DNA of 23,697 nucleotides, from contig DATMBG010000052.1 in the NCBI GenBank assembly GCA_035559535.1, positions 62,001 through 85,697 on the forward strand. The letters run 5' to 3'. The notes under the pieces are model-generated. The model was not told the DNA's origin. It did no database searches and saw only the letters and a program-made list of their open reading frames with translations. Shown here one piece after another: positions 2,074 to 21,940 of the stretch. The translations under genes were made by a program, and so were the position numbers. Each line of letters starts with the position of its first letter. Positions within the stretch are counted from its first letter, which is position 1. This DNA is from Candidatus Limnocylindrales bacterium. Its GTDB lineage: Bacteria; Moduliflexota; Moduliflexia; Moduliflexales; JAUQPW01.

Positions 2074-3219
2074 ATGGCTTTAAATCCACTTATTGAATTA
2101 CAAATTTTTGGCCAGAGCGTCTGGTATGATAATCTCAGTCGCGGGTTGATAACCTCTGGCGAACTCCGGAAAAAAATCGAAGAGGATGGGCTCCGGGGGG
2201 TAACCTCAAATCCGGCCATTTTTGAAAAAGCTATCACAGGAAGCACAGAGTACGATGAAGCCTTGAAGGAACTGGCCAGACAGGGTAAGAGCCCAGAGGA
2301 AATTTATGAGGAGCTGGTCGTTCAAGATATCCAGATGGCTTCAGATCTCCTCCAACCCGTTTATGAGAAGACAAATGGAATAGATGGCTATGTGAGCCTG
2401 GAAGTCTCACCCCATCTGGCACGGGATACCACAGGGACCATCTCTGAAGCCCTGCGACTTTGGCAACGGGTAGATCGTAGGAATCTGATGATCAAAGTCC
2501 CGGCGACCCCAGAAGGTTTACCGGCTATCGAACAGCTCATCACCAGAGGCCTTAATATTAACATCACGCTCATATTTTCCCAAGAAGTCTATGAACAGGT
2601 TGCCTATGCCTACCTCTCGGGTCTGGAGAAACGTGTGGCCGAAGGAAAACCCCTGGATACCGTCGCCTCTGTAGCCAGCTTCTTTGTAAGTCGTATCGAT
2701 ACTGCAGTGGATGCACTGCTTGAAGCCCGTATCCGACAGGCTATCCATGAACAGGAGAGGATAAAGCTCTCCTCTTTGCTCGGTAAGGTAGCCATCGCCA
2801 ATGCGAAACTGGCTTACCAGAGGTTTAAACAAATCTTTCACAGTGACCGATTCCGTGCCTTGGAAAAGAAAGGTGCGCGGGTACAACGACCCTTATGGGC
2901 CTCAACAGGTACTAAAAACCCAAAATACAGCGATGTACTCTATGTGGAATCCCTTATCGGTTCAAATACCATCAATACTATGCCACCTGCAACTTACCAA
3001 GCTTTTCGAGATCACGGTCGGGTACGTCCAACCCTGGAGGAAGATATCCCGGGGGCACGTCAAACCCTTCATACCCTTGCAGAGGTGGGTATCGATCTCG
3101 GACAGGTGACCGCAGAGCTCCTGGAAGCAGGAATTAAATTGTTTGCCGAACCCTTTGATAAGCTCCTCCGGGCCATCGAAGAAAAGCGAAATACCGTTCT
3201 TCATGAAAAATCTTCATGA
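2074..3219 (+). CDS. tal: Transaldolase (long, type II / actinobacterial-cyanobacterial-like)
   Basis: GQSVWYDNLSR, GVTSNPAIFEKA, GYVSLEVSP, Schiff-base Lys in NLMIKVPAT, NITLIFS, SVASFFVSRID and QRPLWASTGTKNP. RBS GAGGAGG upstream. Confidence 0.95.
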   Translation: MALNPLIELQIFGQSVWYDNLSRGLITSGELRKKIEEDGLRGVTSNPAIFEKAITGSTEYDEALKELARQGKSPEEIYEELVVQDIQMASDLLQPVYEKTNGIDGYVSLEVSPHLARDTTGTISEALRLWQRVDRRNLMIKVPATPEGLPAIEQLITRGLNINITLIFSQEVYEQVAYAYLSGLEKRVAEGKPLDTVASVASFFVSRIDTAVDALLEARIRQAIHEQERIKLSSLLGKVAIANAKLAYQRFKQIFHSDRFRALEKKGARVQRPLWASTGTKNPKYSDVLYVESLIGSNTINTMPPATYQAFRDHGRVRPTLEEDIPGARQTLHTLAEVGIDLGQVTAELLEAGIKLFAEPFDKLLRAIEEKRNTVLHEKSS

Positions 3220-4087: not shown

Positions 4088-4214
4088 AGAAGCAAAGCGT
4101 CAGAGGCCAGGAGTTCAGGTTTAAGCATCGGAATAGTAGCCAAGGATGGGAAGTTGGATTTCTATCCATTCTGGCTCCTGACCCCGGACCCTTAAATAAA
4201 AAGGAGAATTGTCC

Positions 4215-6326
4215 ATGTCCCATTCTACAGTTTTTCTAATCACTTACCTGATTCTCTTATTGCTGATCCCCCTATCGGGAGGGGCTGCAACCCCGGAGAT
4301 GATCTCACTTCCAATTCGAAAAGTTGTTCTCTATAAACATGGGGTGGGTTATTTCGAGCATCAAGGAAAGGTCAGGGATAATCAGGTGATTTCCCTTCGG
4401 TTCAAAGCCGGTCAAATGAACGATATGCTTAAGTCTCTGGTGGTCTTGGACCTGGGTCAGGGGAATATTTCGGAAATTGCCTTCGATTCAAAAAAACCTT
4501 TAGATAAGTTATTAGATGATTTTTCCGTGAACCTGTCGGGAGAGGCTAATTTGATAACTCTCCTGGGCCAGATTAAAGGAGCTCGGGTAGAGGTTCAGGT
4601 AGGAGCAGAGGGGATCTCAGGCTTCATTCTTGGGCTTGAAACCAAAACCTTTATCCAGGACAGTCATGAGGTTCATACCCGTCTCCTTAATATCATGAAG
4701 GAGAACGGGGAATTGGTTCGTTTTAACCTGGACGATATCAAGGGAATTCAGGTATTGGATGAGTCTCTTCGACGGGATGTCCAGGATTATCTGACAACCC
4801 TCCTGGCTTATCGAAAGAAGGATATCCGCATGGTCACTATTTCTACCAACGGAACGGGAGAACGGGAGGTAATGTTGGGTTATACGGTGGAGGTACCGGT
4901 TTGGAAGACTTCTTATCGAATGGTACTGGAAGAGAATAAAAAACCTCTTCTTCAGGGTTGGGCCATCGTCGATAACATCCAGGATGAGGATTGGGAAGAG
5001 GTTGAGCTTTCCCTGGTATCGGGCCTGCCGGTATCCTTCATTCAGGATTTGTACACCCCGCGTTATAAAAGAAGACCTGTGGTACAGGTGGAAGAGGAAC
5101 TGGCCATAGCTCCCCAGGTTGCCGAGGCTCCGCTGGAAGAAGGTCCGGCCGAAGAGAAGGCTGCGGAAACCAGAACCCTGGAGTCACTTCCAGGAGCCAT
5201 CGAAGGTAAAATGGCTCCAACACCTGCCCCTCCACCTACTTCCATGCCAAAGCGGGAAATGCTGGCTAAGGCTCGTACGGCCGAAACAAGTAAACCTTCT
5301 CTGGCTACCGGCCTCGCACAGGCTCAGCCCCTTCAAACGATTACCCAGGAGGTCGGTGATCTGTTTGAATACCGTATCGACCATCCGGTTACCATCAAGC
5401 GAAATCGATCCGCCCTGCTTCCCATTGTTCAAAGGGAGATGGACGGAGAAAAGATAGTCTTGTATAATGAGGGGGTTCGGGCGGAGAATCCTTTGCGGGC
5501 GCTGAGAATTACCAATACCACAGGTCTAACCCTGGAAGGAGGACCTGTTACCGTTATCGATGAAAATACCTACGCCGGAGAAGCTCTTCTGGGTACCCTT
5601 AAACCCAATGAGAAAAGTTTTATTTCCTATGCCGTGGATTTGGGAAGTCTGGTAAATACAGCCCATGAAAGCAAACGCGATCGGGTCTTTCTGGTTAAGA
5701 TTATCAACGGAAATCTTTCCATTCATTATAAGCAGGTGGAGAGCAAAACTTATACCGTTCGTAATAAAGAAGAGAAGACAAAGGTTCTCTATATCGAGCA
5801 TCCTTATCGGTCAGACTGGACCCTGGCCGATAATTCTAATCTGGTGGAAACAACTCCGAATTTCTACCGCTTCCGGGTGGAACTAAAGCCCAATGCTACT
5901 ACCAAGTTTGATGTCAGAGAGGAGAATAGCTTTGCGGATACTTATGTATTGACCGATCTGACCGAAGAAAATATTACCATTTTTGCCAATCAAAAATATT
6001 TTACTCCGGAGGTTGAGCAAACCATCCATCAGATCATTCGGTTAAAGGGACAGATCGGTGATATGGATAAACAAATAAAAGAAAAAGAAGACCAGGTCAC
6101 TACCATCTTCAAAGATCAAGAAAGGGTTCGGGAGAACCTCAAAACCTTAAAAGATACCCCCGAGCAACGCAAGCTTTTAGAACGTTATACCGCCAAGTTG
6201 TCTGCCGGGGAAGACCAACTTGAACAACTCCGGAAAGAGATTCAAGCCCTTAAGGCCCAGCGTCTCCAGCTTTCACAGGAATTAAGTAAGATCTTGCAAG
6301 GATTGAGCTTTGAGAAGCAGCTTTAA
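4215..6326 (+). CDS. Secreted DUF4139-type protein with a C-terminal coiled coil
   Basis: N-terminal signal peptide. Motifs LPIRKVVLYKHGVGYFE, PVWKTSYR, LQGWAIVDN..EDW..V.LSLVSGLP, GDLFEYRI..PVTI..SALLPI and GLTLEGGPVTV. AAGGAG at 4201-4206 favours ATG 4215. Confidence 0.75.
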   Translation: MSHSTVFLITYLILLLLIPLSGGAATPEMISLPIRKVVLYKHGVGYFEHQGKVRDNQVISLRFKAGQMNDMLKSLVVLDLGQGNISEIAFDSKKPLDKLLDDFSVNLSGEANLITLLGQIKGARVEVQVGAEGISGFILGLETKTFIQDSHEVHTRLLNIMKENGELVRFNLDDIKGIQVLDESLRRDVQDYLTTLLAYRKKDIRMVTISTNGTGEREVMLGYTVEVPVWKTSYRMVLEENKKPLLQGWAIVDNIQDEDWEEVELSLVSGLPVSFIQDLYTPRYKRRPVVQVEEELAIAPQVAEAPLEEGPAEEKAAETRTLESLPGAIEGKMAPTPAPPPTSMPKREMLAKARTAETSKPSLATGLAQAQPLQTITQEVGDLFEYRIDHPVTIKRNRSALLPIVQREMDGEKIVLYNEGVRAENPLRALRITNTTGLTLEGGPVTVIDENTYAGEALLGTLKPNEKSFISYAVDLGSLVNTAHESKRDRVFLVKIINGNLSIHYKQVESKTYTVRNKEEKTKVLYIEHPYRSDWTLADNSNLVETTPNFYRFRVELKPNATTKFDVREENSFADTYVLTDLTEENITIFANQKYFTPEVEQTIHQIIRLKGQIGDMDKQIKEKEDQVTTIFKDQERVRENLKTLKDTPEQRKLLERYTAKLSAGEDQLEQLRKEIQALKAQRLQLSQELSKILQGLSFEKQL

Positions 6327-6328
6327 CC

Positions 6329-7060
6329 TCACCACTTCCATTTTAAGGCAAGGCCTACGGAGTTCCATTTAAATAAAGGTACTATGGGAAGGCCGCGGGA
6401 AGAAGGGGAAGATCCACTGGAGGATTCTGTGGAATCAGCGATTTTGGATTTTACAATGGTAAAGGGGGCTATATCCGGCATCCCTTCCAGAAGCCGGGAC
6501 CGGAGGCCATCAAAAAATGCCAGTTGTTTGGTCACATCTTCGGTCAGTAAAGTCGGCATATTATCCTCTGCAAGATAAAGCTCTAAGGCCAGATCGGAGC
6601 TTATCCCCAGGTTCATAAATGCCTTTGATGAGACAATCCCCCAGGCCGGTTCAGAGGGAGCTGATAGGTTTTTTTCTAAAGGGGAGATCATCTGACCCTT
6701 CTCTCCGAGTAATGCAGGTAACGTGCTTTGGGGAGAGCAAACCGTTTTTAAAAGATCAATGGGTGAACCTGCCGCATACAGAAGACAGTAATCTCGTGGA
6801 ATCTTTGGACCGTTTTCGGATAAAAGGTTGGATATTTCCTCCCCGTTTAACAAGGTGAGATGAACCGGTTTTGGTTCCGGACTTATATAAAGCTGAGAAA
6901 GATTTAATGTAATTCGTGGCCGGGGTTCTTGGACCGACAACTTAGGGGCTTCGAAGAGAAAAAATTCTTCAGAAAAGGCCTGTAAGGGGAAAGATACCAT
7001 ACCGATTAAAACAGCCAGGGTAAAAAAACCCGAACAGGGGAAAGTCGCTCTAAGATCCAT
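6329..7060 (-). CDS. Hypothetical exported protein ending in an alternating-hydrophobic C-terminal Trp motif
   Basis: RBS AAGGAG upstream, signal-peptide-like N-terminus (...PLQAFS) and C-terminus SVGLALKWKW. No family recognised. Confidence 0.6.
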   Translation of the reverse strand: MDLRATFPCSGFFTLAVLIGMVSFPLQAFSEEFFLFEAPKLSVQEPRPRITLNLSQLYISPEPKPVHLTLLNGEEISNLLSENGPKIPRDYCLLYAAGSPIDLLKTVCSPQSTLPALLGEKGQMISPLEKNLSAPSEPAWGIVSSKAFMNLGISSDLALELYLAEDNMPTLLTEDVTKQLAFFDGLRSRLLEGMPDIAPFTIVKSKIADSTESSSGSSPSSRGLPIVPLFKWNSVGLALKWKW

Positions 7061-10708: not shown

Positions 10709-11581
10709 TTAAGTTTGGGGTTCCAGGACGCCTATAAGGGTAAGAAATGAGCTATATTTCACTTTAAAGCGGATGACCTCTCCCCGATAGGGACCTTGTT
10801 GAGCCACCCAGGTAATCATCTCACCCTTATTTTTTATCATCTTTCCGGTTTCGAGGCTCTTTAATGTGAACTCCCAACGGGTAACGGGATAAGGGTTTCC
10901 GTTAACTTCTATATTTTCTTCTTCCGCTTCAGCCAGACCCAATTCATAGGATTCTCCATTGAAAACAAAGGCAAACGATTGGTCTTTGCCCATTCCATTT
11001 TTTTTGATAAAATCCATCAGGGACAGGATCCCCATGAAACTCCCTCTCTTTTCCACCGGCTCCTTTCCAGAAACCCGCGAAATCAATCTATCCGGTAAAA
11101 TTTGGATGGTCTCTCGAAGTTCTTTTCCATGCCGGTTCATATACCCCGAATACTGAATAGAAAGGATTCCCTGAGGTCCTGTGATTTTCTTTTCCTCAAA
11201 ATAAATGGCTGCCCTGTAACCCTTTCGGTTAACCTCTTCTGATGAACCCCCTCGCATTTTAAACGTAGTCTGGATGTTCTTCTCATTAATTCGGTGAGAA
11301 CTTTCTTCCCAAATAAGATATCCGGCGTTCTCAATGTCGTCCAGTTTTTTTGTAGGGTCTCCGGTTATCACGGCAACCCCGGCCGATAGGCCGGATACTA
11401 CAGAGGGAAACCGGGCGATGATTCTATAACGAAGGATTTTTTCCAGGGTATGAAGGCGATTCCGATCCTCCTTAGCCGGTCTGTTCATCTTGCTTTTCTG
11501 ACTTTTCCCATAAGCAGGAACCACCAAAATTACAACCAGCATTAAGAAAAGAGACAAGGTACTAACAGTTGAAGATTTCAT
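10709..11581 (-). CDS. Hypothetical exported protein (possibly DUF3108-like beta-rich fold)
   Basis: Signal-peptide-like N-terminus (...VPAYG). The segment EENIEVNG..YPV...ITWV resembles DUF3108-type proteins; the family call is tentative. Confidence 0.6.
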   Translation of the reverse strand: MKSSTVSTLSLFLMLVVILVVPAYGKSQKSKMNRPAKEDRNRLHTLEKILRYRIIARFPSVVSGLSAGVAVITGDPTKKLDDIENAGYLIWEESSHRINEKNIQTTFKMRGGSSEEVNRKGYRAAIYFEEKKITGPQGILSIQYSGYMNRHGKELRETIQILPDRLISRVSGKEPVEKRGSFMGILSLMDFIKKNGMGKDQSFAFVFNGESYELGLAEAEEENIEVNGNPYPVTRWEFTLKSLETGKMIKNKGEMITWVAQQGPYRGEVIRFKVKYSSFLTLIGVLEPQT

Positions 11582-14719: not shown

Positions 14720-15610
14720 TCAATTTAGATAGTCTTCTAAACTTCGGGTTATAGCCCTTTTCTTTAACCGCTCCTTGGCCCTTTTCTCGAGTTGACGAAC
14801 TCTTTCTCTACTCAGGTTTAATTGTTTCCCTATTTCTGCCAACGTCATAGGTTTTCCCCCATTAATTCCATACCTCAGTTTTAGAATGGTCTCTTCCCTG
14901 GGATCAAGTCCACTGAGCAGTTCCCTAAGCTCCTCCATGAGAGACTCTTTAATTACCCACTGCTCCGGAGAGAGGTAGTTTTTTCCTCGGATGGTGTCCA
15001 CAAAAGTGGTTCCTTCATTATCGGAGATGGGAGTGTCCAGGGATAAAGGACCCCAGGATAATCCTAAGAGAGATTCGACTTTTTTGACCGGAATATTTAA
15101 TCTACTCGCCAAATCTTCCGGGCTGGGGGATTCGGCTATTTTTTCCTGCATGAGATCCTTATAGACTTTACCCAGTTTGATGATCATATCGGCCTGTCGC
15201 ATAGGAATCCGAATAATACTCCCTTGCTCAGCCAAGGCTTGCATGATGGCCTGTCTAACCCACCATACCCCATAGGAGATAAATTTGACTCCTTTCGAGG
15301 GGTTGAATCTTTTAGCGGCTTCGATTAAGCCCAAATTCCCCTCATTGATAAGATCAAGTAAATCCAATCCACATCCTTGATACTGCTGAGCAATATTGAC
15401 TACAAATTTTAAGTTTCCTTCTACAAGCCGATTAAAAGCTTGCTCATCACCGTTTTGGATCCCTTTCCCCAGCTCTATTTCTTCTTCTCGGGTTGTTATA
15501 GGAATGCTGCCTATCTTTCTAAAATAGGCTTGAAGAGGACTTGCTGTAGTCATTTTCTGTGAAAATTTAAGTTTAGATTTTTTTAGCTTCTTTTTGGATG
15601 GTCTTACCAT
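14720..15610 (-). CDS. Alternative sigma70-family factor (group 2, RpoS-like; regions 1.2-4, no region 1.1)
   Basis: Region 1.2 LQAYFRKIG.IP..TREEE, region 2 NLKFVV.IA..Y...DLINEGNLGLIEAA.RF and SYGVWWVRQAI, region 3 LSLDTPI, region 4 TLAEIG..LNLSRERVRQLE. 296 aa, RBS AAGGAG. Confidence 0.92.
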   Translation of the reverse strand: MVRPSKKKLKKSKLKFSQKMTTASPLQAYFRKIGSIPITTREEEIELGKGIQNGDEQAFNRLVEGNLKFVVNIAQQYQGCGLDLLDLINEGNLGLIEAAKRFNPSKGVKFISYGVWWVRQAIMQALAEQGSIIRIPMRQADMIIKLGKVYKDLMQEKIAESPSPEDLASRLNIPVKKVESLLGLSWGPLSLDTPISDNEGTTFVDTIRGKNYLSPEQWVIKESLMEELRELLSGLDPREETILKLRYGINGGKPMTLAEIGKQLNLSRERVRQLEKRAKERLKKRAITRSLEDYLN

Positions 15611-15741
15611 TTCGTTACTCCTTGACTAGATTAGAATTTTTTTTAATAGCAGTCCTTCTCTTTATTATTACCCATCAGATTGAGGAGGTTATCTTTAAAA
15701 ACAAATTTAACTTAAAGCTGTGTTCTTTAAGGATAGAAATG

Positions 15742-15757
15742 TGCATTTTTAGTGCCA
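15742..15757 (-). promoter_or_regulatory. sigma54 (-24/-12) promoter upstream of the sigma70 gene
   Basis: The minus strand reads TGGCACTAAAAATGCA (GG-N10-GC, perfect TGGCAC -24 box), about 130 nt upstream of ATG 15610. Confidence 0.7.
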
Positions 15758-16056
15758 AGGTCGGAGTCCCTATCCTGGAAGTCTTTAAACAGAACGCGTC
15801 TTTCTGGGAATCGGTTTTGGAATCTCTCCCCTAAAAGCCTTTAAATACTTCAAGTTTTAAAGCCTGGAAGAACGTAACCTTCCCTAAGAAGGACTTATTA
15901 TTCACATCTTTTCATTTTAATCAAGTCTTTTTTGAAAAAAATTAAATTTTTTTAAAAAAAATGTATAACTTCTGGTCAACCGGTTAAATTAAAAGTGTAT
16001 GTGCAGGTGTTTTAGTGCAATTGGTTGTCATAATAGTTCCTAGGAGGCGAAAATTT

Positions 16057-16938
16057 ATGATAAAAAGTATACTTATCCCCTTTGATGGCTCTGAGCATGC
16101 CAGGACGGCTCTTAGATATGGTATTCAACTGGGTCGATGGGATCGGGCCAGGATAGATGGACTGTTTGTGATCGATATTCGGGCTATCCTCCAACCTCCC
16201 ACAACCCCCTTAGCCGTTGAAGCGTTCTTACCGGATACCGGAAATGTAGAACTTAACTTCAATTTAGAACTTCAAAAAAAGCTGGCTGAAACCGGTGAAT
16301 CTATTCTTAAAGACTTTGAAGACCTCTGTGATAGAGAAGGAGTCCGGCATGGAAGAATTTTTTTAGAAACAGGTTTTATTGCACCCACCATTTGTGAAAG
16401 AGGGAAAACTGCCGATATAATTATACTCGGAAAAGAAGGGCTTTTTGAGGAGACGGGGGCTTCTGGAGAGTCTAAGGCGCAAGTTCCGGATAAACTCCTG
16501 GGTCCGGTAGTCACTGAGGTTATGAGGACGGCTATCCGACCGGTCCTGGTGGTCCCCTGCGAATATAGGGAAATAAAACGTATCCTGATCGCCTATGATG
16601 GCCATGAGGCTGCAAGTCGAGTTCTCCAAATAGCAGCCTACCTGGGGGCCGTCGGGGAGTTTGATCTGAAAATTCTGGTGGTCACAGATTCCCCCTCTGA
16701 AGGGAGAAAGATCGGTCAACAGGCCGAGGACTACCTCCAGGCTTATGAACTCCAACCTCACCTTATCATGGAGACCGGAAATCCCGTTGAGAAAATATTA
16801 GCAGTTGCCAGACAAGAGGCTATCGATCTCATCGCCATGGGCGCTTTTGGGAAAAGTAAAATACGGGAATTGTTTTTGGGAAGTACCACCGAAGCGGTAG
16901 TCAAAGAAGCGGATTGTCCCGTGCTTTTGCATCAATAG
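16057..16938 (+). CDS. Tandem-domain universal stress protein (USP)
   Basis: IKSILIPFDGSE, ADIIILGKEG, LLGPV...RPVLVV, second domain RILIAYDG, DLIAMGAFG.SKIRELFLGSTT...CPVL. AGGAGG at 16042-16047 favours ATG 16057. Confidence 0.92.
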   Translation: MIKSILIPFDGSEHARTALRYGIQLGRWDRARIDGLFVIDIRAILQPPTTPLAVEAFLPDTGNVELNFNLELQKKLAETGESILKDFEDLCDREGVRHGRIFLETGFIAPTICERGKTADIIILGKEGLFEETGASGESKAQVPDKLLGPVVTEVMRTAIRPVLVVPCEYREIKRILIAYDGHEAASRVLQIAAYLGAVGEFDLKILVVTDSPSEGRKIGQQAEDYLQAYELQPHLIMETGNPVEKILAVARQEAIDLIAMGAFGKSKIRELFLGSTTEAVVKEADCPVLLHQ

Positions 16939-17018
16939 GAAAAAGGAAGGGTCATTTTTAACCCCCCCCCTTCTAAGCAAAGCTTCAAAAAGGAAGGAGC
17001 CTTTTATGGAATCTATAG

Positions 17019-17429
17019 CCAAAATGGGGAGAATATCCGGCAGCCTCCATTCTTAAAGTCGTGGAGAGGAAAAAAGTCGATGAAATAGATGATCGGACCC
17101 TTATTTTGGCGGATATCGCGGAGAAAGCCAGGCGTCAGGTCTATGTCCGGGTGCGGGAAATCTTGATAAGTAATAAAATGGAAGCAGAAAAAGCCGATCA
17201 ATTGGCCCAGATTCTAACGGAAGGGCGCTGGACCCATGATTACCCCATCAGTTATGAGGAAGCCGTAGAATTAGGATTACCCGTGCGGGACTCTTTACCC
17301 GAAGAGGTATTGATCCTTATGAGTTTATACCCTCAACCGCCGCAACGCCGTCCCTCTGTTCAATATATTCCTGTTCCTTATAAGAAAGAGGGAGAAGAAA
17401 AAAGAACCCGGTCTAAAATTTTGGAATAA
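17019..17429 (+). pseudogene. N-terminally truncated ClpP-class 'SDH_sah' (DUF114) serine protease fragment
   Basis: The frame is open only from 17019 (after TAG 17016-17018) and reads GEYPAASILKVVE..EIDD.TLI.ADIAEKA...GRWTHDYPI...LYPQP..RRPSVQYIP. The N-terminal half containing the catalytic Ser is absent. Confidence 0.65.
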
Positions 17430-17462
17430 CCGGGGGAAATTCTCTTAAGGCTCTTTCTCCTG

Positions 17463-17605
17463 ACTCCGAGGTTTTCAAAACCCCGGAGTTTTCCTCCCTA
17501 AAGTTCTGAAAATCCCGAGATCTCCCATATTTGGGGATTTTGGAATCGTTGCCAACTCTTAGGTTGGGCTTAAACCTCCTGAGGTTTTAAATACCTCAGA
17601 GATCT
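17463..17605. repeat. Cluster of about 3 degenerate copies of a ~30-bp palindrome (CTCCGAGGTTTT-n-AAAACCTCGGAG type)
   Basis: ACTCCGAGGTTTTCAAAACCCCGGAGT (17463-17489), a degenerate copy at about 17494-17523, and AAACCTCCTGAGGTTTTAAATACCTCAGAGATCT (17572-17605). Confidence 0.6.
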
Positions 17606-17822
17606 ATCCGGTTCTCCATCAAGGCTTGAATTCTCACCCCTCTTATAGAGGGGTAGAAATGTACCTGAATCCCGGTTTGTGGACTCCGGGTTCTCTTCCG
17701 GGGATCCGGGTGTTTCTCATCCTCCCTTTCTGAGATCTCCTGGTTCTGTAAGCACTGCATGGAGGGCAAAAGCCCGGAGAGAGGACTCTCCTTCCTCCCT
17801 TGCCCGGGAAAGAAAAGATCCC

Positions 17823-17838
17823 TGGTACCAGAATTGCA
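17823..17838 (+). promoter_or_regulatory. sigma54 (-24/-12) promoter facing the 17948 gene (and possibly the BON gene)
   Basis: TGGTACCAGAATTGCA (GG-N10-GC, canonical TTGCA -12 box). Confidence 0.65.
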
Positions 17839-17947
17839 AGTTTACTTTTTTAGAGCTATTTAAGCTAAACAAAACTAAAAATAAGAATATATTGGAAAAG
17901 TTTACAAACCTTGTTTGAATTAACTATAAAGAGTGGAGGTATTTTCT

Positions 17948-18355
17948 ATGCCGGTAGGTGCATGGAGTCCAGAACGAGAGCAAGAATACGAAAAGCTCAA
18001 GGAGGAGTTTAAAAAGGAAGGAAGATATAAGGGAAGAGAAGAAGAAGTAGCTGCACGCATTGTAAATAAACAGCGCCGGGAATTCAAAGAGACTAAAGAG
18101 GCCAGCGAAGAAGATAAAAATGACCAATTAGATCAGGAACTGCCCATTGAAAATTACGATCGGTTGACCGTTCAGGAGTTAACCAGGAAGTTGGGATCTC
18201 TTTCAGAAAAAGAGCTTCAAGAAATTGAAGAGTATGAAAAGAAGCACAAAAACCGAAAAACCGCTTTAGAAGCCATGGAAAGACAAAGGAAGAAACTCCA
18301 GGACGGGAAAGAAAAAGCAAAGACGAAAGAGACCAGGGGTTATTGGGATCTCTAG
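17948..18355 (+). CDS. Small highly charged two-module stress-associated protein
   Basis: GGAGG at 17935-17939 precedes ATG 17948. N-module WSPEREQEYEKLK...G..EEVAARIVNKQR; C-module LPIENYDRLTVQEL...L..IEEYEKKHKNRKT. Confidence 0.75.
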   Translation: MPVGAWSPEREQEYEKLKEEFKKEGRYKGREEEVAARIVNKQRREFKETKEASEEDKNDQLDQELPIENYDRLTVQELTRKLGSLSEKELQEIEEYEKKHKNRKTALEAMERQRKKLQDGKEKAKTKETRGYWDL

Positions 18356-18468
18356 GGTGATCCAGGGGCTATTATCCTTGATTTCTCCTACACGGTAAAG
18401 GATAAAAGGCTCATAATCCTCATAATCCTATGGAAAAAGGGAAAATTCAGATTCATCGGGAGGAAGTT

Positions 18469-19053
18469 ATGAAATTACTTCTGGTTTTAGGGAAAGGATT
18501 CCTATCTGTATTTTTGGTTTTTATGCTGATTTCTTACCTGGTGGGGGGCAGTGGGGCCGAAGCCCGGGAACCGGCTAAGGATCCCGATCCTGCTCAAACG
18601 AAAACCCGCCCCGACTGGTGGTTGACTTTTAAAACTAAAATGGCCCTTCTGGCCAGTCCGGAGGTGAGCGCTTTTGATATTGATGTAGATACCAAAGATG
18701 GGGTCATTTACTTAAAAGGGACGGTTTCTTCAGAAAATGAAAAACAGCGTGCCGAACAAGTAGCCCAGGGAATAGAAGGAAAACGGGGGGTAGTAAATAA
18801 TCTAGTCGTTTCCGATAAGGCAAGACCGGAATATCTTTCCGACAAAGATGAAAATATTCGGGCTGCCGTCGAAAAAAATCTGGCCAGTGATCCGAACTTT
18901 AAGAATGTCCAGGTAGACGTCAAGGATGGAATTGTGACCTTAACCGGATCGGTGGAAACCTATTCTTTAAGTGCAGAAGCTGCCAGACTGGCCCGAGTTA
19001 AAGGTGTAAAAGCCATTCAAAATGAGTTGATCGTAGAGAAGGAACCTTCCTGA
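18469..19053 (+). CDS. Dual BON-domain (OsmY-like) periplasmic protein
   Basis: Signal peptide, BON1 (DWWLTFKTKMALL...IDVDTKDGVIYLKGTV...VVNNL) and BON2 (DENIRAAVE...VDVKDGIVTLTGSV...GVKAIQNEL). GGAGG at about 18459-18463 favours ATG 18469. Confidence 0.9.
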   Translation: MKLLLVLGKGFLSVFLVFMLISYLVGGSGAEAREPAKDPDPAQTKTRPDWWLTFKTKMALLASPEVSAFDIDVDTKDGVIYLKGTVSSENEKQRAEQVAQGIEGKRGVVNNLVVSDKARPEYLSDKDENIRAAVEKNLASDPNFKNVQVDVKDGIVTLTGSVETYSLSAEAARLARVKGVKAIQNELIVEKEPS

Positions 19054-19101
19054 TAGAACGGAGTGGAGTTTTGCCCGAACGGGCCAAACTTTGTATAGAT
19101 A

Positions 19102-19206
19102 CCGAACGGTAGGGAAAAAGGTGGATATATTATAGACCCTGGATAAAAAATCAACACAGATCCCTCCTCATCCAGTCCGCATATTCCATACTTCCTTACC
19201 GTTCGG
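19102..19206. repeat. Long imperfect inverted repeat between convergent genes; probable terminator or MITE-like relic
   Basis: CCGAACGGTA...TACCGTTCGG ends, internal TGGA/TCCA and CTGGAT/ATCCAG pairs, and a T-tract right after 19206. A smaller hairpin lies at 19067-19090. Confidence 0.55.
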
Positions 19207-19245
19207 CTTTTTTATTTTTTCCGTTTCCCAGGGATACCTTCTGAT

Positions 19246-19692
19246 TTATGTGGACCCGGATTCTGGATCCTCCCCTACTAAGGAGCTGATAATCTGATTG
19301 GTTCGAGTTAAGGTCAGATGGACTGGGCATTTATTGGCAATTTGTAAGAGCCGTTCTTGTTGCTCCCTGGTCAGGTTGCCCTTTACCCTTATGTTTCGTT
19401 CAATCCTGTCAATTTTTCCCTCCTTATTTTCACACTCTGCACAGTCTTTGGCATGGATTTTCTGATGACTGAGGATCACTTCGACCTGCTCTAGAGGCCA
19501 TCCTTTACGCCGCGCATACAGCAGCAAAGTCATCGATGTTCAGGCACCCAGCGCAGATAAGATGAGTTCATAGGGGTCGGGTCCTTTTCCATCTCCCCCA
19601 GCTTCTTGGGGTTCATCGGCTATAAACCGATAAGTCGAAGTAATGACCTCTTGCTGAAGGTTTTCTCTGGATCGTACCGTTACAGTTGCCAT
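19246..19692 (-). CDS. OsmC/Ohr-family (YhfA-like) peroxiredoxin with an in-frame UGA at the catalytic position; probable selenoprotein (148 aa, Sec51)
   Basis: ATG 19692 reads MATVTVRSRENLQQEVITSTYRFIADEPQEAGGDGKGPDPYELILSALGA, then TGA (19540-19542), then TSMTLLLYARRKGWPLE...DCAEC...IANKCPVH. The OsmC motifs ADEP..GG..GP.PYE and CPV are intact on both sides of the TGA. Confidence 0.85.
19499..19539 (-). promoter_or_regulatory. Candidate bacterial SECIS element directly 3' of the UGA
   Basis: The mRNA after UGA can fold as A-CAUC-gauga-CUUU-GCUGC-[UGUAUGC]-GCGGC-gu-AAAG-GAUG. The apical loop starts 19 nt after UGA and has G in its second position. Folded by eye only. Confidence 0.6.
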
Positions 19693-19768
19693 ATGAGCAA
19701 TCAGAAGCCAGAAGCAAGGGAAGCTTTTTTGGTTTCTTACTTCCGGCTTCGTATCTCCTGGTTCCAGA

Positions 19769-20545
19769 TTAAGCTATTTTAATGATTCCCTCTTCTACAG
19801 GTTGAAATCGGGTAACCACCTGAGGATCGTGCCCGGCAACAATGAGATCTTTAGAGCCGGCCAGCTCTTCTATTTTCTCAAAGGCCATGAGCATCTGGGG
19901 TAGATGGGTGATGATCTGGACCGGCTCTCTTCTTTCAATATTTCTATAAAAGTGTGAGGCGTCAGAAGCCAATACAACGTTTCCGCGGGCCGTCTGTACG
20001 GTCACAATCTGAGTACCTGCCGTATGCCCTCCCACCCAGTACACCCGGACCCCCGGGATCACCTGTCGGTCTCCTTCCACCATAAAAATTCGACCTCCAT
20101 AGTTTAGCCTGACCAGCTCCGCCAGTGTCGCCGGATTCGTAACCCTTTGATAGGGCTCATAGCGGGCCATAGGACCGGTAAAGAAGGCAACCTCTTCCCT
20201 TTGAACCCAGAAAGTGGCCCTGGGGAACAAAGAATATCCCCCCCAGTGGTCCCAGTGGAGATGGGTAACCAGGACCAGGGAAACCTCCAGCGCATCAACA
20301 CCGATCTTACCTAATAAGGATGTCGGATTGACATAGTTAGATATCTCTCGAACCTGGGCATCTTCATAACAAAAGCCGGTATCTACCAGGATGGGAAAAG
20401 GTCCACCTAAAATACACCATATATAAAAATAGAGAGTTACTTTCTCATGGGAAGGATTTCGATAAAAGAATTGACAGGCATCCAGTTGTTTTTCTGCATA
20501 CTTTAAAGCGTAGATTTCATACCTCTCAGGCTGATTGAGGGACAT
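19769..20545 (-). CDS. Metallo-beta-lactamase-fold hydrolase, N-acyl homoserine lactonase family
   Basis: LVDTGF, THLHWDHWGG (HxHxDH), GGHTAG, LASDASH and AGHDP. Confidence 0.88.
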   Translation of the reverse strand: MSLNQPERYEIYALKYAEKQLDACQFFYRNPSHEKVTLYFYIWCILGGPFPILVDTGFCYEDAQVREISNYVNPTSLLGKIGVDALEVSLVLVTHLHWDHWGGYSLFPRATFWVQREEVAFFTGPMARYEPYQRVTNPATLAELVRLNYGGRIFMVEGDRQVIPGVRVYWVGGHTAGTQIVTVQTARGNVVLASDASHFYRNIERREPVQIITHLPQMLMAFEKIEELAGSKDLIVAGHDPQVVTRFQPVEEGIIKIA

Positions 20546-20587
20546 GATCTCTCATAACCTGTTCACCGTGAAAAGGGTCCATAAAGG

Positions 20588-20642
20588 GTAGGAGCAACAC
20601 TACCGAATCCCCCCAGTGGGGCAACTTACAGGTTGCTCCTGC
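20588..20642. repeat. GTAG-type REP-like inverted element
   Basis: GTAGGAGCAAC (20588-20598) pairs with GTTGCTCCTGC (20632-20642). An inner GGGGCAAC-ttacag-GTTGCTCC hairpin is also present. Confidence 0.5.
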
Positions 20643-20764
20643 CGGTTATGTTCTATCCCAACACGGAAACGGTATAAACTGTAAAATATATAACGTAAGA
20701 AGAATCCGGGGCAGATCCTCTTTACGTTTTATGTTTTATCCGATCTAGGGTATCTTTTAATCCC

Positions 20765-21940
20765 TTACTTTTGGTGAATAAAATAGGCTTCCAAAGTCTC
20801 CGCGTATAAAACACTCCCCCATAGAAGGTCCTCGATTTTTACGAATTCATTGGGTACATGGGCTAATCTATCATCCCCAGGGTAGTGAACGACTGAAAGA
20901 ATCCCGGCGAAGAAGAGATCTTTAGCCACGGTGTTACCCCCCATGGTGGTGTATTCCATGGGGATACCCAGCTTTTTTGCGGCCTGGTCGAAGCTTTTCA
21001 TAATGAGGGATTGTTTATCGGAAAGGTGAGGTTGGGTTTCGTGGAGGACTTTGATCTGGAAGCTGGCATCGGGGGATTTTCTCTTCACTGCCGCTATCTT
21101 GTCTTCTACGGCCCTCAAGACCTGTTCTTTATTGATACCCAGAGGAAGCCTGAAATCGATGGTAATTCGGGCACTGGCCGGGACCGTATTGGTATTTGTC
21201 CCTCCGTGGAAAGTACCGATATTCATGGTCCATCCATCAAAGGCAGGGTCGTATTGATCCCCCAGGTCCAAAGTTTTAAGCTCTGCCACCAACTCTGCCA
21301 GGGGAACAATGGCGTTCTTCCCCAGTTGGGGCATGGAACCGTGAACCTGAACGCCCGTACTGATAACCTCCAACCAGAGAACACCTTTTTCCCCATAAAT
21401 GGAAACATTCATCTTCCCCCCATCGGGGATGATGGCTACATCAAAGTGCAATCCACATTCCTGGATCAGGTAAATAATTCCCAGTTTAGAACCCATTTCC
21501 TCGTCGGCAGCAGCAACCAGATACAGGGTTCCATCAAAGTCAGGATACTCTGCCAGGAAAGCTTTGCAGGCACTATAAGCACAGGCGAAAGAACCTTTAT
21601 CGTCGAGGGTCCCCCGACCAAAAATTTTTCCATCCCGAAGGGTGGGCGTAAAGGGATCTGTTTCCCATAAGCTCCTCTCACCGGGTGGAACTACATCCAT
21701 ATGGCTTACAAAACCCAGGGATCGCTTCCCCCGACCTATTTTTCCAACCACGTTGGTTCGTCCGGGCTCCTTCTCATAATAACTCACTTCCATCCCCAAA
21801 TGCTTCATCTTTTCCGTAACAATCTCTTTGCAGAGATATTCGTTACCGGGAGGATTTACAGTATTCTGCCTGACCAGATCAGAAACGATCTGGATAATTT
21901 CTGTTTCATCGATGTATTTTTCGTATTTGGATTTTTTCAT
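20765..21940 (-). CDS. M20 family metallohydrolase (ArgE/DapE-like)
   Basis: TVNPPGNE, SHMDVVP, GRGTLDDKG, ADEEMG, HGS.P.LG.NAI and AHVPNE. Confidence 0.9.
   Translation of the reverse strand: MKKSKYEKYIDETEIIQIVSDLVRQNTVNPPGNEYLCKEIVTEKMKHLGMEVSYYEKEPGRTNVVGKIGRGKRSLGFVSHMDVVPPGERSLWETDPFTPTLRDGKIFGRGTLDDKGSFACAYSACKAFLAEYPDFDGTLYLVAAADEEMGSKLGIIYLIQECGLHFDVAIIPDGGKMNVSIYGEKGVLWLEVISTGVQVHGSMPQLGKNAIVPLAELVAELKTLDLGDQYDPAFDGWTMNIGTFHGGTNTNTVPASARITIDFRLPLGINKEQVLRAVEDKIAAVKRKSPDASFQIKVLHETQPHLSDKQSLIMKSFDQAAKKLGIPMEYTTMGGNTVAKDLFFAGILSVVHYPGDDRLAHVPNEFVKIEDLLWGSVLYAETLEAYFIHQK

Follow-up and report, generated by a model that had tools for sequence, protein, structure and literature searches.

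Selenoproteins of the OsmC type have been in print since 2005, when the Sargasso Sea survey of Zhang, Fomenko and Gladyshev (PMC1088965) included an OsmC-like selenoprotein (COG1765) with three sequences and a UxxT motif, U being selenocysteine (Sec). The 2008 survey of Global Ocean Sampling (GOS) data (PMC2398784) had five sequences, a study of the Olavius symbionts (PMC1976440) lists an OsmC-like selenoprotein, and two reviews (PMC9312934, 2022; PMC13188914, 2026) contain one OsmC entry each, all in the available text of these sources. In the same text, the OsmC subfamily that bears an additional CxxC motif has no separate entry among the selenoproteins catalogued. Here we analyze a gene of this subfamily, which lies at positions 19246-19692 on the reverse strand of a 23,697-nucleotide stretch of DNA from Candidatus Limnocylindrales bacterium (assembly GCA_035559535.1, contig DATMBG010000052.1, positions 62,001 to 85,697; hereafter the window) and has an in-frame TGA at codon 51. 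Its sequence makes it very probable that the gene is intact and encodes an OsmC-fold selenoprotein of 148 residues, with Sec at the first of two catalytic-position cysteines. An earlier note on the window, made from the DNA letters alone, had proposed such a gene, and was right that OsmC-like Sec proteins had been predicted in computational surveys.

The selenoproteins already catalogued belong to the NF041052/UxxT family ('OsmC-related (seleno)protein'). This family and the window gene are alike in their OsmC fold (PF02566/COG1765 type), in being recoded, and in where Sec stands: 11 residues past a conserved proline, in the place of the first catalytic-position Cys. In both, the UGA is followed by a hairpin whose apical loop is small and contains G, and both are known from computational prediction only. 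They differ in their motifs: the window protein reads GA-U-TSMT and has both a CxxC and KCPVH, whereas three NF041052 members that we translated read GF-U-LLT (UxxT) and have no CxxC and no CPVH. A BLASTP comparison of one NF041052 member with the window protein gave only 18% identity over 84 residues, with the Sec residues of the two in the same column. On the NF041052 model the window protein scores 58.5 bits (49.2 in the genome search) against a cut-off of 95, and all 13 of the other Sec forms of the CxxC subfamily that we scored are also under the cut-off, at 39-76 bits. By these sequence comparisons the window gene is not a member of the NF041052/UxxT family. In a sample of 401 genomes, five had NF041052 matches over the cut-off, and seven of the eight matches hold one TGA. 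One genome, G424, has four NF041052-type OsmC selenoprotein paralogs on four contigs (L176 among them), with one in-frame TGA each.

The closest sequence relatives of the window protein are instead Cys forms, which are either stand-alone proteins of about 140 residues or the C-terminal domains of proteins of 400-404 residues. Identity to the C-terminal OsmC domains of two of these longer proteins, from genomes G058 and G037, is 50-53%. The layout of the longer proteins appears to match that of the OsmC-esterases, in which an alpha/beta-hydrolase is followed by an OsmC domain. A profile of the family matches residues 267-398 of PDB entry 9wo1 ('Osmotically inducible protein C', 400 amino acids) with an E-value of 3.3e-50; a literature search for the paper describing this structure returned unrelated matches only. 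The available text of Jensen et al. (2016; PMC5113044) states that the OsmC domain of OsmC-esterases has both active-site cysteines of E. coli OsmC and that several OsmC-esterases have an extra CXXC, and it calls the function of the domain enigmatic. The motifs GxCTxMT, DCxxCE and CPVH are common to the OsmC-esterase domains and the window protein, with Cys in the former where the window protein has Sec. OsmC-esterases differ in having the fused N-terminal hydrolase, whereas the window gene is stand-alone and its upstream neighbor is a separate gene with a metallo-beta-lactamase (MBL) fold. We also considered a Sec-containing fusion in GC-rich loci (for example L052) and rejected it: the long upstream frames gave no sense-strand hydrolase match.

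The thiol peroxidases OsmC and Ohr are more distant. They have one fold with the window protein (Foldseek probability 1.00) and two conserved cysteines at corresponding places, but identity is only about 15-21% (from Foldseek and the available text of PMC5113044), and the window protein carries an extra CxxC. TIGR03562 gives it only 19.4 bits, where 85.8 would be needed to pass the cut-off.

Reading frame and fold of the TGA-containing gene

When TGA is translated as U, positions 19246-19692 (reverse strand) form a single frame of 148 codons followed by a TAA stop, and the only codon that departs from genetic code table 11 is the TGA of codon 51, at 19540-19542. The earlier note had described this frame, with one TGA and no other lesion, and all of its coordinates and residue numbers are correct. 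Around the proposed Sec the product reads LILSALGA-U51-TSMTLLLYARRKGW, and further on DC84AEC87E and KC122PVH. The Pfam family PF02566 (OsmC) matches residues 33-134, spanning the TGA, with 66.7 bits (gathering score 27.5; E-value 2.7e-18), and eight columns that are invariant in the family lie upstream of it (D26, E27, G32, G33, G37, P40, Y41 and G49). Codons 1-50 are therefore homologous coding sequence and not a chance open stretch. The gene start agrees with that of the stand-alone homologs, which have the consensus MAxVxV.

The list of open reading frames (ORFs) made with table 11 contains only the tail of this gene, 19246-19533, as a 95-residue ORF, as the note had pointed out. Its expectation that standard pipelines would cut the gene short was also borne out: the only near-identical public protein records are two fragments of 95 residues, P0002, which is the call made for the window gene itself, and P0014, which is 95% identical to it, so public gene calling shortens both this gene and the ortholog in its congener. 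Of 23 long ORFs checked in the window, four end in TGA as an ordinary stop (those for transaldolase, 2074-3219; an ORF at 6329-7060; the sigma factor, 14720-15610; and the BON gene, 18430-19053). The genetic code has therefore not been reassigned, again as the note had maintained.

A search of a large protein collection gave 3255 matches, the best full-length ones being 129-196 residues long and 53-69% identical, and we aligned 118 of these with the query. The column of U51 is Cys in all 118. Across all 119 aligned sequences C84, C87 and C122 are invariant, as are P123 and V124, and the CxxC and the Cys of KCPVH are where the note had placed them. The AlphaFold2 model built from the 119-sequence alignment has a mean pLDDT (predicted local distance difference test) score of 90.8. 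Foldseek matched it to structures of OsmC-like and Ohr proteins with a probability of 1.00 and 15-23% identity, among them 2opl, 2onf, 2pn2, 1vla, 1lql, 6mjn, 4xx2, 1n2f and 1zb9. In this model U51 lies within a long central helix, residues 40-63. The second conserved catalytic-position Cys, C122 (codon at 19327-19329, reverse strand), which is the proposed resolving residue, is immediately before a helix formed by residues 123-129. The CxxC motif, C-A-E-C at codons 84-87 (19432-19443, reverse strand), is in a loop between two strands (residues 67-80 and 93-105). No other internal part is modelled with so little confidence; mean pLDDT is 66 for residues 81-90.

Conservation of the TGA codon, the hairpin and the Sec machinery

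A genome of the same genus, G001, has an ortholog of the window gene that is 93% identical at the protein level, with the TGA in place. Over the 447 bases compared, 34 codons differ between the two. Upstream of the TGA, in codons 1-50, there are 8 synonymous and 4 non-synonymous differences; downstream, in codons 52-138, there are 13 synonymous and only 1 non-synonymous; and in the C-terminal tail, codons 139-148, there are 0 synonymous and 8 non-synonymous. The synonymous excess over codons 1-50 and 52-138 indicates purifying selection on either side of the TGA. Contigs that span codon 51 and are 90-95% alike to the window are also present in three further public runs, from two studies of soil and hot-spring metagenomes. 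The TGA is thus not private to one strain, which the note had named as a way in which its proposal could fail: it is present in the congener, and for the contigs of the other runs no differing letter is listed at this place. The likely source run of the window has a mean word depth of 29.3, and no variant is listed at the TGA.

To find further Sec forms, we searched a collection of species-representative genomes with a degenerate DNA pattern for A-L-G-x-TGA-T-S-M-T-x3-Y-A. This gave 106 stretches, of which we examined 80; in every one of the 80 loci the TGA is in frame and motifs of the OsmC family are present on both sides of it. Sec forms of the CxxC subfamily are thus found in at least 80 other genomes. 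By their labels, these belong to Methylomirabilota/Rokubacteria, Gemmatimonadota, Acidobacteriota, Chloroflexota/Dehalococcoidia, Desulfobacterales, Planctomycetota, Krumholzibacteriia, Myxococcaceae, Gammaproteobacteria and a few other groups. We also sampled 151 genomes evenly from the order labelled Gemmatimonadales: 28 have a homolog (E-value up to 1e-20), with TGA in 6 and TGC or TGT in 22. The total of 106 is a lower bound, because two of these six TGA forms read U-M-S-M-T and were missed by the pattern. Closer to home, none of seven genomes from the same order as the window organism matched the window query, and the occurrence of the subfamily is patchy. The check that the note proposed on relatives, for TGA or a Cys codon (TGC/TGT) between conserved flanks, came out positive in the congener, the 80 Sec loci, the Gemmatimonadales homologs and, at the protein level, the 118 Cys homologs.

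We made a quick maximum-likelihood tree from 26 Sec and 28 Cys forms, chosen by dropping long-branch rows and then sampling at random. The tree needs at least four switches between Sec and Cys, two of them forced by starred branches. It places the window gene and its congener within a mostly-Cys half, with support of 82-89 in the Shimodaira-Hasegawa-like approximate likelihood ratio test (SH-aLRT). An approximately unbiased (AU) test did not reject a topology that groups these two with the remaining Sec forms (P = 0.33); the group was chosen after the tree had been seen. A separate origin of Sec in the window lineage is possible on this sequence evidence; the lineage may have gained Sec, or kept it, separately from the main Sec clade and with a hairpin that is differently built.

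The window genome (G000) has a full set of genes for Sec synthesis and insertion. The note had suggested a search for selA, selB, selC and selD, and all four were found, each over its curated cut-off: selA with 622 bits, selB with 408.6, selD with 388.6 and tRNA-Sec with 74.5, which ARAGORN calls as tRNA-SeC (tca). The selD gene is itself a selenoprotein gene, with one in-frame TGA (ECGG-U-AAKL; contig C29, L010 at about 1528-1590). In other genomes that carry the Sec form, selB was over the cut-off in five of five tested.

Downstream of the UGA of the window gene there is a hairpin resembling a Sec insertion sequence (SECIS), CUUUGC-(U)-GCUGU [AUGC] GCGGC-GUAAAG, at 19503-19529 on the reverse strand. 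It has 11 pairs, its stem begins 10 nt past the UGA, its apical loop AUGC lies 22 nt past the UGA, and its minimum free energy (MFE) is -11.7 kcal/mol in a 32-nt frame. This stem-loop agrees with the description used in the Sargasso Sea survey, in being shortly past the UGA and in having a small apical loop with a G. In the congener there is a single substitution within the hairpin, G to A (R62H), which changes a C-G pair by the bulge into a U-A pair made with the formerly bulged U; the bulge shifts and the stem is kept, with an MFE of -10.3 kcal/mol. The selD gene of the window genome has a hairpin of its own, GCCCAAC [GGU] GUUGGGC, whose loop is 20 nt past the UGA, compared to 22 nt in the OsmC gene, and both loops conform to the published description of such elements. 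The other Sec forms have a hairpin at an equal position, mostly UCGCGC [UGUAY] GCGCGA, formed from the codons for A-L-Y-A-R. Over 32 nt, the local folding energy of 86 Sec forms averages -12.4 kcal/mol and that of 24 Cys forms -5.6 kcal/mol (Mann-Whitney P = 4e-12). The Cys forms comprise 22 from the one order Gemmatimonadales together with those of G058 and G037 (L024 and L025). We imposed a fixed structure of eight pairs on an alignment of 81 Sec forms: 79.2% of the cells pair, and in five of the eight pairs both sides change. Covariation scores 0.151, compared to 0.083 in shuffled alignments (none of 500 reached 0.151) and to at most 0.090 when the partner was slid along the sequence.

Possible chemistry and competing explanations

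Sec occurs almost only at redox-catalytic positions of proteins. What follows on Sec insertion, on the substrate and its turnover, and on what the CxxC does is inferred. The UGA of codon 51 would be decoded as Sec by SelB and tRNA-Sec, guided by the hairpin in the downstream coding sequence. Of the two conserved cysteines at catalytic positions, Sec would replace the first, which lies in the long central helix. Selenol-based redox catalysis is then likely. The selenolate of U51 may attack an oxidized substrate, for which a hydroperoxide is the default guess from the OsmC and Ohr families. This would form a selenenic acid, which C122 of KCPVH would resolve to a selenenylsulfide, to be recycled by an external thiol reductant. 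The invariant CxxC, in its flexible hairpin loop, could act as a relay or as a metal site.

Several observations weigh against this interpretation or limit what can be drawn from the evidence for it. A search of positions 19200-19760 against Rfam with E-values up to 10 matched no family, SECIS included, and gave chance-level matches only. Taken together, the 66 nt that follow the TGA are not more stably folded than shuffled sequence (z = 0.13); the local hairpin alone is conspicuous, and its statistics are inflated by the shared ancestry of the sequences and by the position of the stem inside conserved codons. Two Cys forms, L149 and L150, hold hairpins that are equally stable (-10.9 and -10.7 kcal/mol). 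In a Pfam scan of 150 of the 152 frames flanking the 80 Sec loci, no neighbor family was common across lineages, and no conserved neighbor hints at a substrate or a reductant. Support for codon 51 from the comparison runs comes as contigs, in which no differing letter at 19540-19542 is among the differences listed; eight less-supported differences fall outside that list. On the side of function, the available text of PMC5113044 reports that no peroxidase activity of OsmC-esterase OsmC domains was detected when H2O2 or cumene hydroperoxide was the substrate and dithiothreitol (DTT) the reductant.

L149 and L150 are from the Gemmatimonadales sample, read C-M-S-M-T, and resemble two Sec forms that read U-M-S-M-T (L172 and L173). 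Because of this resemblance, a recent switch from Sec to Cys is possible in them, as judged from sequence.

The negative assay of the OsmC-esterase domains bears on what kind of enzyme this is. The note had called the product a Sec/Cys peroxidase with an extra CxxC; the position of Sec and the CxxC stand, and the peroxidase part comes from the superfamily, the nearest characterized Cys relatives having been inactive in one assay. Since OsmC-esterase domains were negative in one assay, peroxidase activity is an extrapolation to this subfamily. We regard it as a serious possibility, if one with less than even chances, that the protein is a real selenoprotein and not a hydroperoxide peroxidase, with some other redox or metal-linked function, for example as a thiol-disulfide or selenenylsulfide relay towards a specific partner or through a metal site made by its CxxC. 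The kinship to OsmC-esterase-type domains, including the match to 9wo1, speaks for this, as do the CxxC, invariant here and missing from the NF041052-type members examined, and the low scores, 19-24 bits, that the window protein reaches with the peroxiredoxin models for OsmC and SACOL1771. A role as a hydroperoxide peroxidase is favored, on the other hand, by the invariance of both catalytic-position cysteines and by the stress-type genomic context (a sigma factor, Usp and BON genes), which fits an antioxidant role. Moreover the negative result in the available text comes from one assay, in which DTT was the sole reductant. Ohr/OsmC enzymes often need lipoyl proteins.

The remaining explanations do without Sec altogether, and we consider all of them highly improbable. 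Codon 51 could be read through without selenium: near-cognate decoding, or a tRNA-Sec charged with Cys, would insert Cys, Trp or some other residue, and the protein made would amount to the Cys form. Cys insertion at UGA through the Sec pathway can occur under selenium scarcity. This has a very low probability: the genome keeps the complete Sec pathway, including a selD that itself contains Sec; the hairpin is kept at the spacing expected for SelB; and TGA is a normal stop in the window. In addition, the coexistence of TGA and TGC/TGT forms within one order (6 and 22 of 28) argues that the Sec and Cys codons are not equivalent. Slightly harder still to credit is a pseudogene, in which the TGA is a nonsense mutation and fragments or nothing are made. 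The 95-residue C-terminal ORF is all that gene callers report, which speaks for it, but the congener has TGA at the identical codon, codons 1-138 differ between the two at 21 synonymous and 5 non-synonymous sites, TGA is present in 80 of 80 examined loci from many phyla, there is no other lesion in the frame, and the genome has the full Sec machinery. Finally, an error of sequencing or assembly, with TGC or TGT as the true codon, is almost certainly not the explanation. The window genome assembly, which is 95.76% complete, is in 58 contigs, and the comparison runs are contigs too; against an error are the identical TGA in an independent congener genome, contigs of two other studies with no other letter listed, and the word depth of the source run. 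An intact selenoprotein gene, with Sec at codon 51, accounts for the evidence much better than any of these three.

Genomic setting and significance

The window gene is flanked upstream by the MBL-fold hydrolase gene (19769-20545, reverse strand; PF00753, 56.4 bits), 76 nt from the OsmC start, and downstream by a convergent gene for an OsmY-like protein with BON domains (18430-19053, forward strand; PF04972, 115.9 bits), which ends in a TGA stop. The order BON-OsmC-MBL recurs in the congener only (L023/L097) and is absent from the other Sec loci. The BON gene closes a stress-type cluster at 14720-19053, which also comprises a gene for a sigma-70 family factor (14720-15610, reverse strand) and a tandem Usp gene (16015-16938). 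Elsewhere, genes resembling uroporphyrinogen decarboxylase (URO-D) recur near some Methylomirabilota loci, and genes for short-chain dehydrogenases/reductases (SDR) near Desulfobacterales loci. On a contig labelled Myxococcaceae (L103:1-339) there is a second OsmC-domain ORF directly upstream of the Sec-form gene. A scan of positions 18900-20800 for promoters and terminators gave counts at or under those expected from shuffled sequence.

Three other ORFs of the window drew our attention. The match of the 122-residue ORF at 17061-17429 to the model PF01972 (SDH/ClpP-like serine protease; 286 positions) is confined to positions 171-284, and the ORF may be a truncated gene or have a mis-called start. 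The ORFs at 4209-6326 (705 residues) and 10709-11581 (290 residues) have no Pfam match at E-values up to 1e-5.

OsmC-type selenoproteins are a kind known since 2005 and common among soil bacteria, and recoding of UGA is a standard bacterial mechanism. The gene described here is a further case of that known kind, and the outcome is a modest one, mainly a correction of annotation and a pointer to a catalytic residue. The mis-annotation as a 95-residue protein probably affects the 100-odd genomes matched by our pattern, and since NF041052 misses the CxxC subfamily, a dedicated model would mend many annotations. Only tentatively, and with the doubt on balance outweighing the case for it, do we suggest that the CxxC-bearing, esterase-related OsmC subfamily is a selenoprotein family in its own right, apart from the UxxT family, and, as part of the same suggestion, that its Sec forms are widespread in soil and sediment bacteria. 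If this is true, the chemistry of the subfamily may differ from hydroperoxide reduction, and the repeated use of Sec at residue 51 would mark the true catalytic nucleophile of an enigmatic domain. The natural pairs of Sec and Cys forms within one order would then offer a handle for finding the substrate. Whether or not the suggestion holds, Sec at residue 51 is an independent pointer to the catalytic residue of the subfamily, including that of the OsmC domain of the OsmC-esterases.

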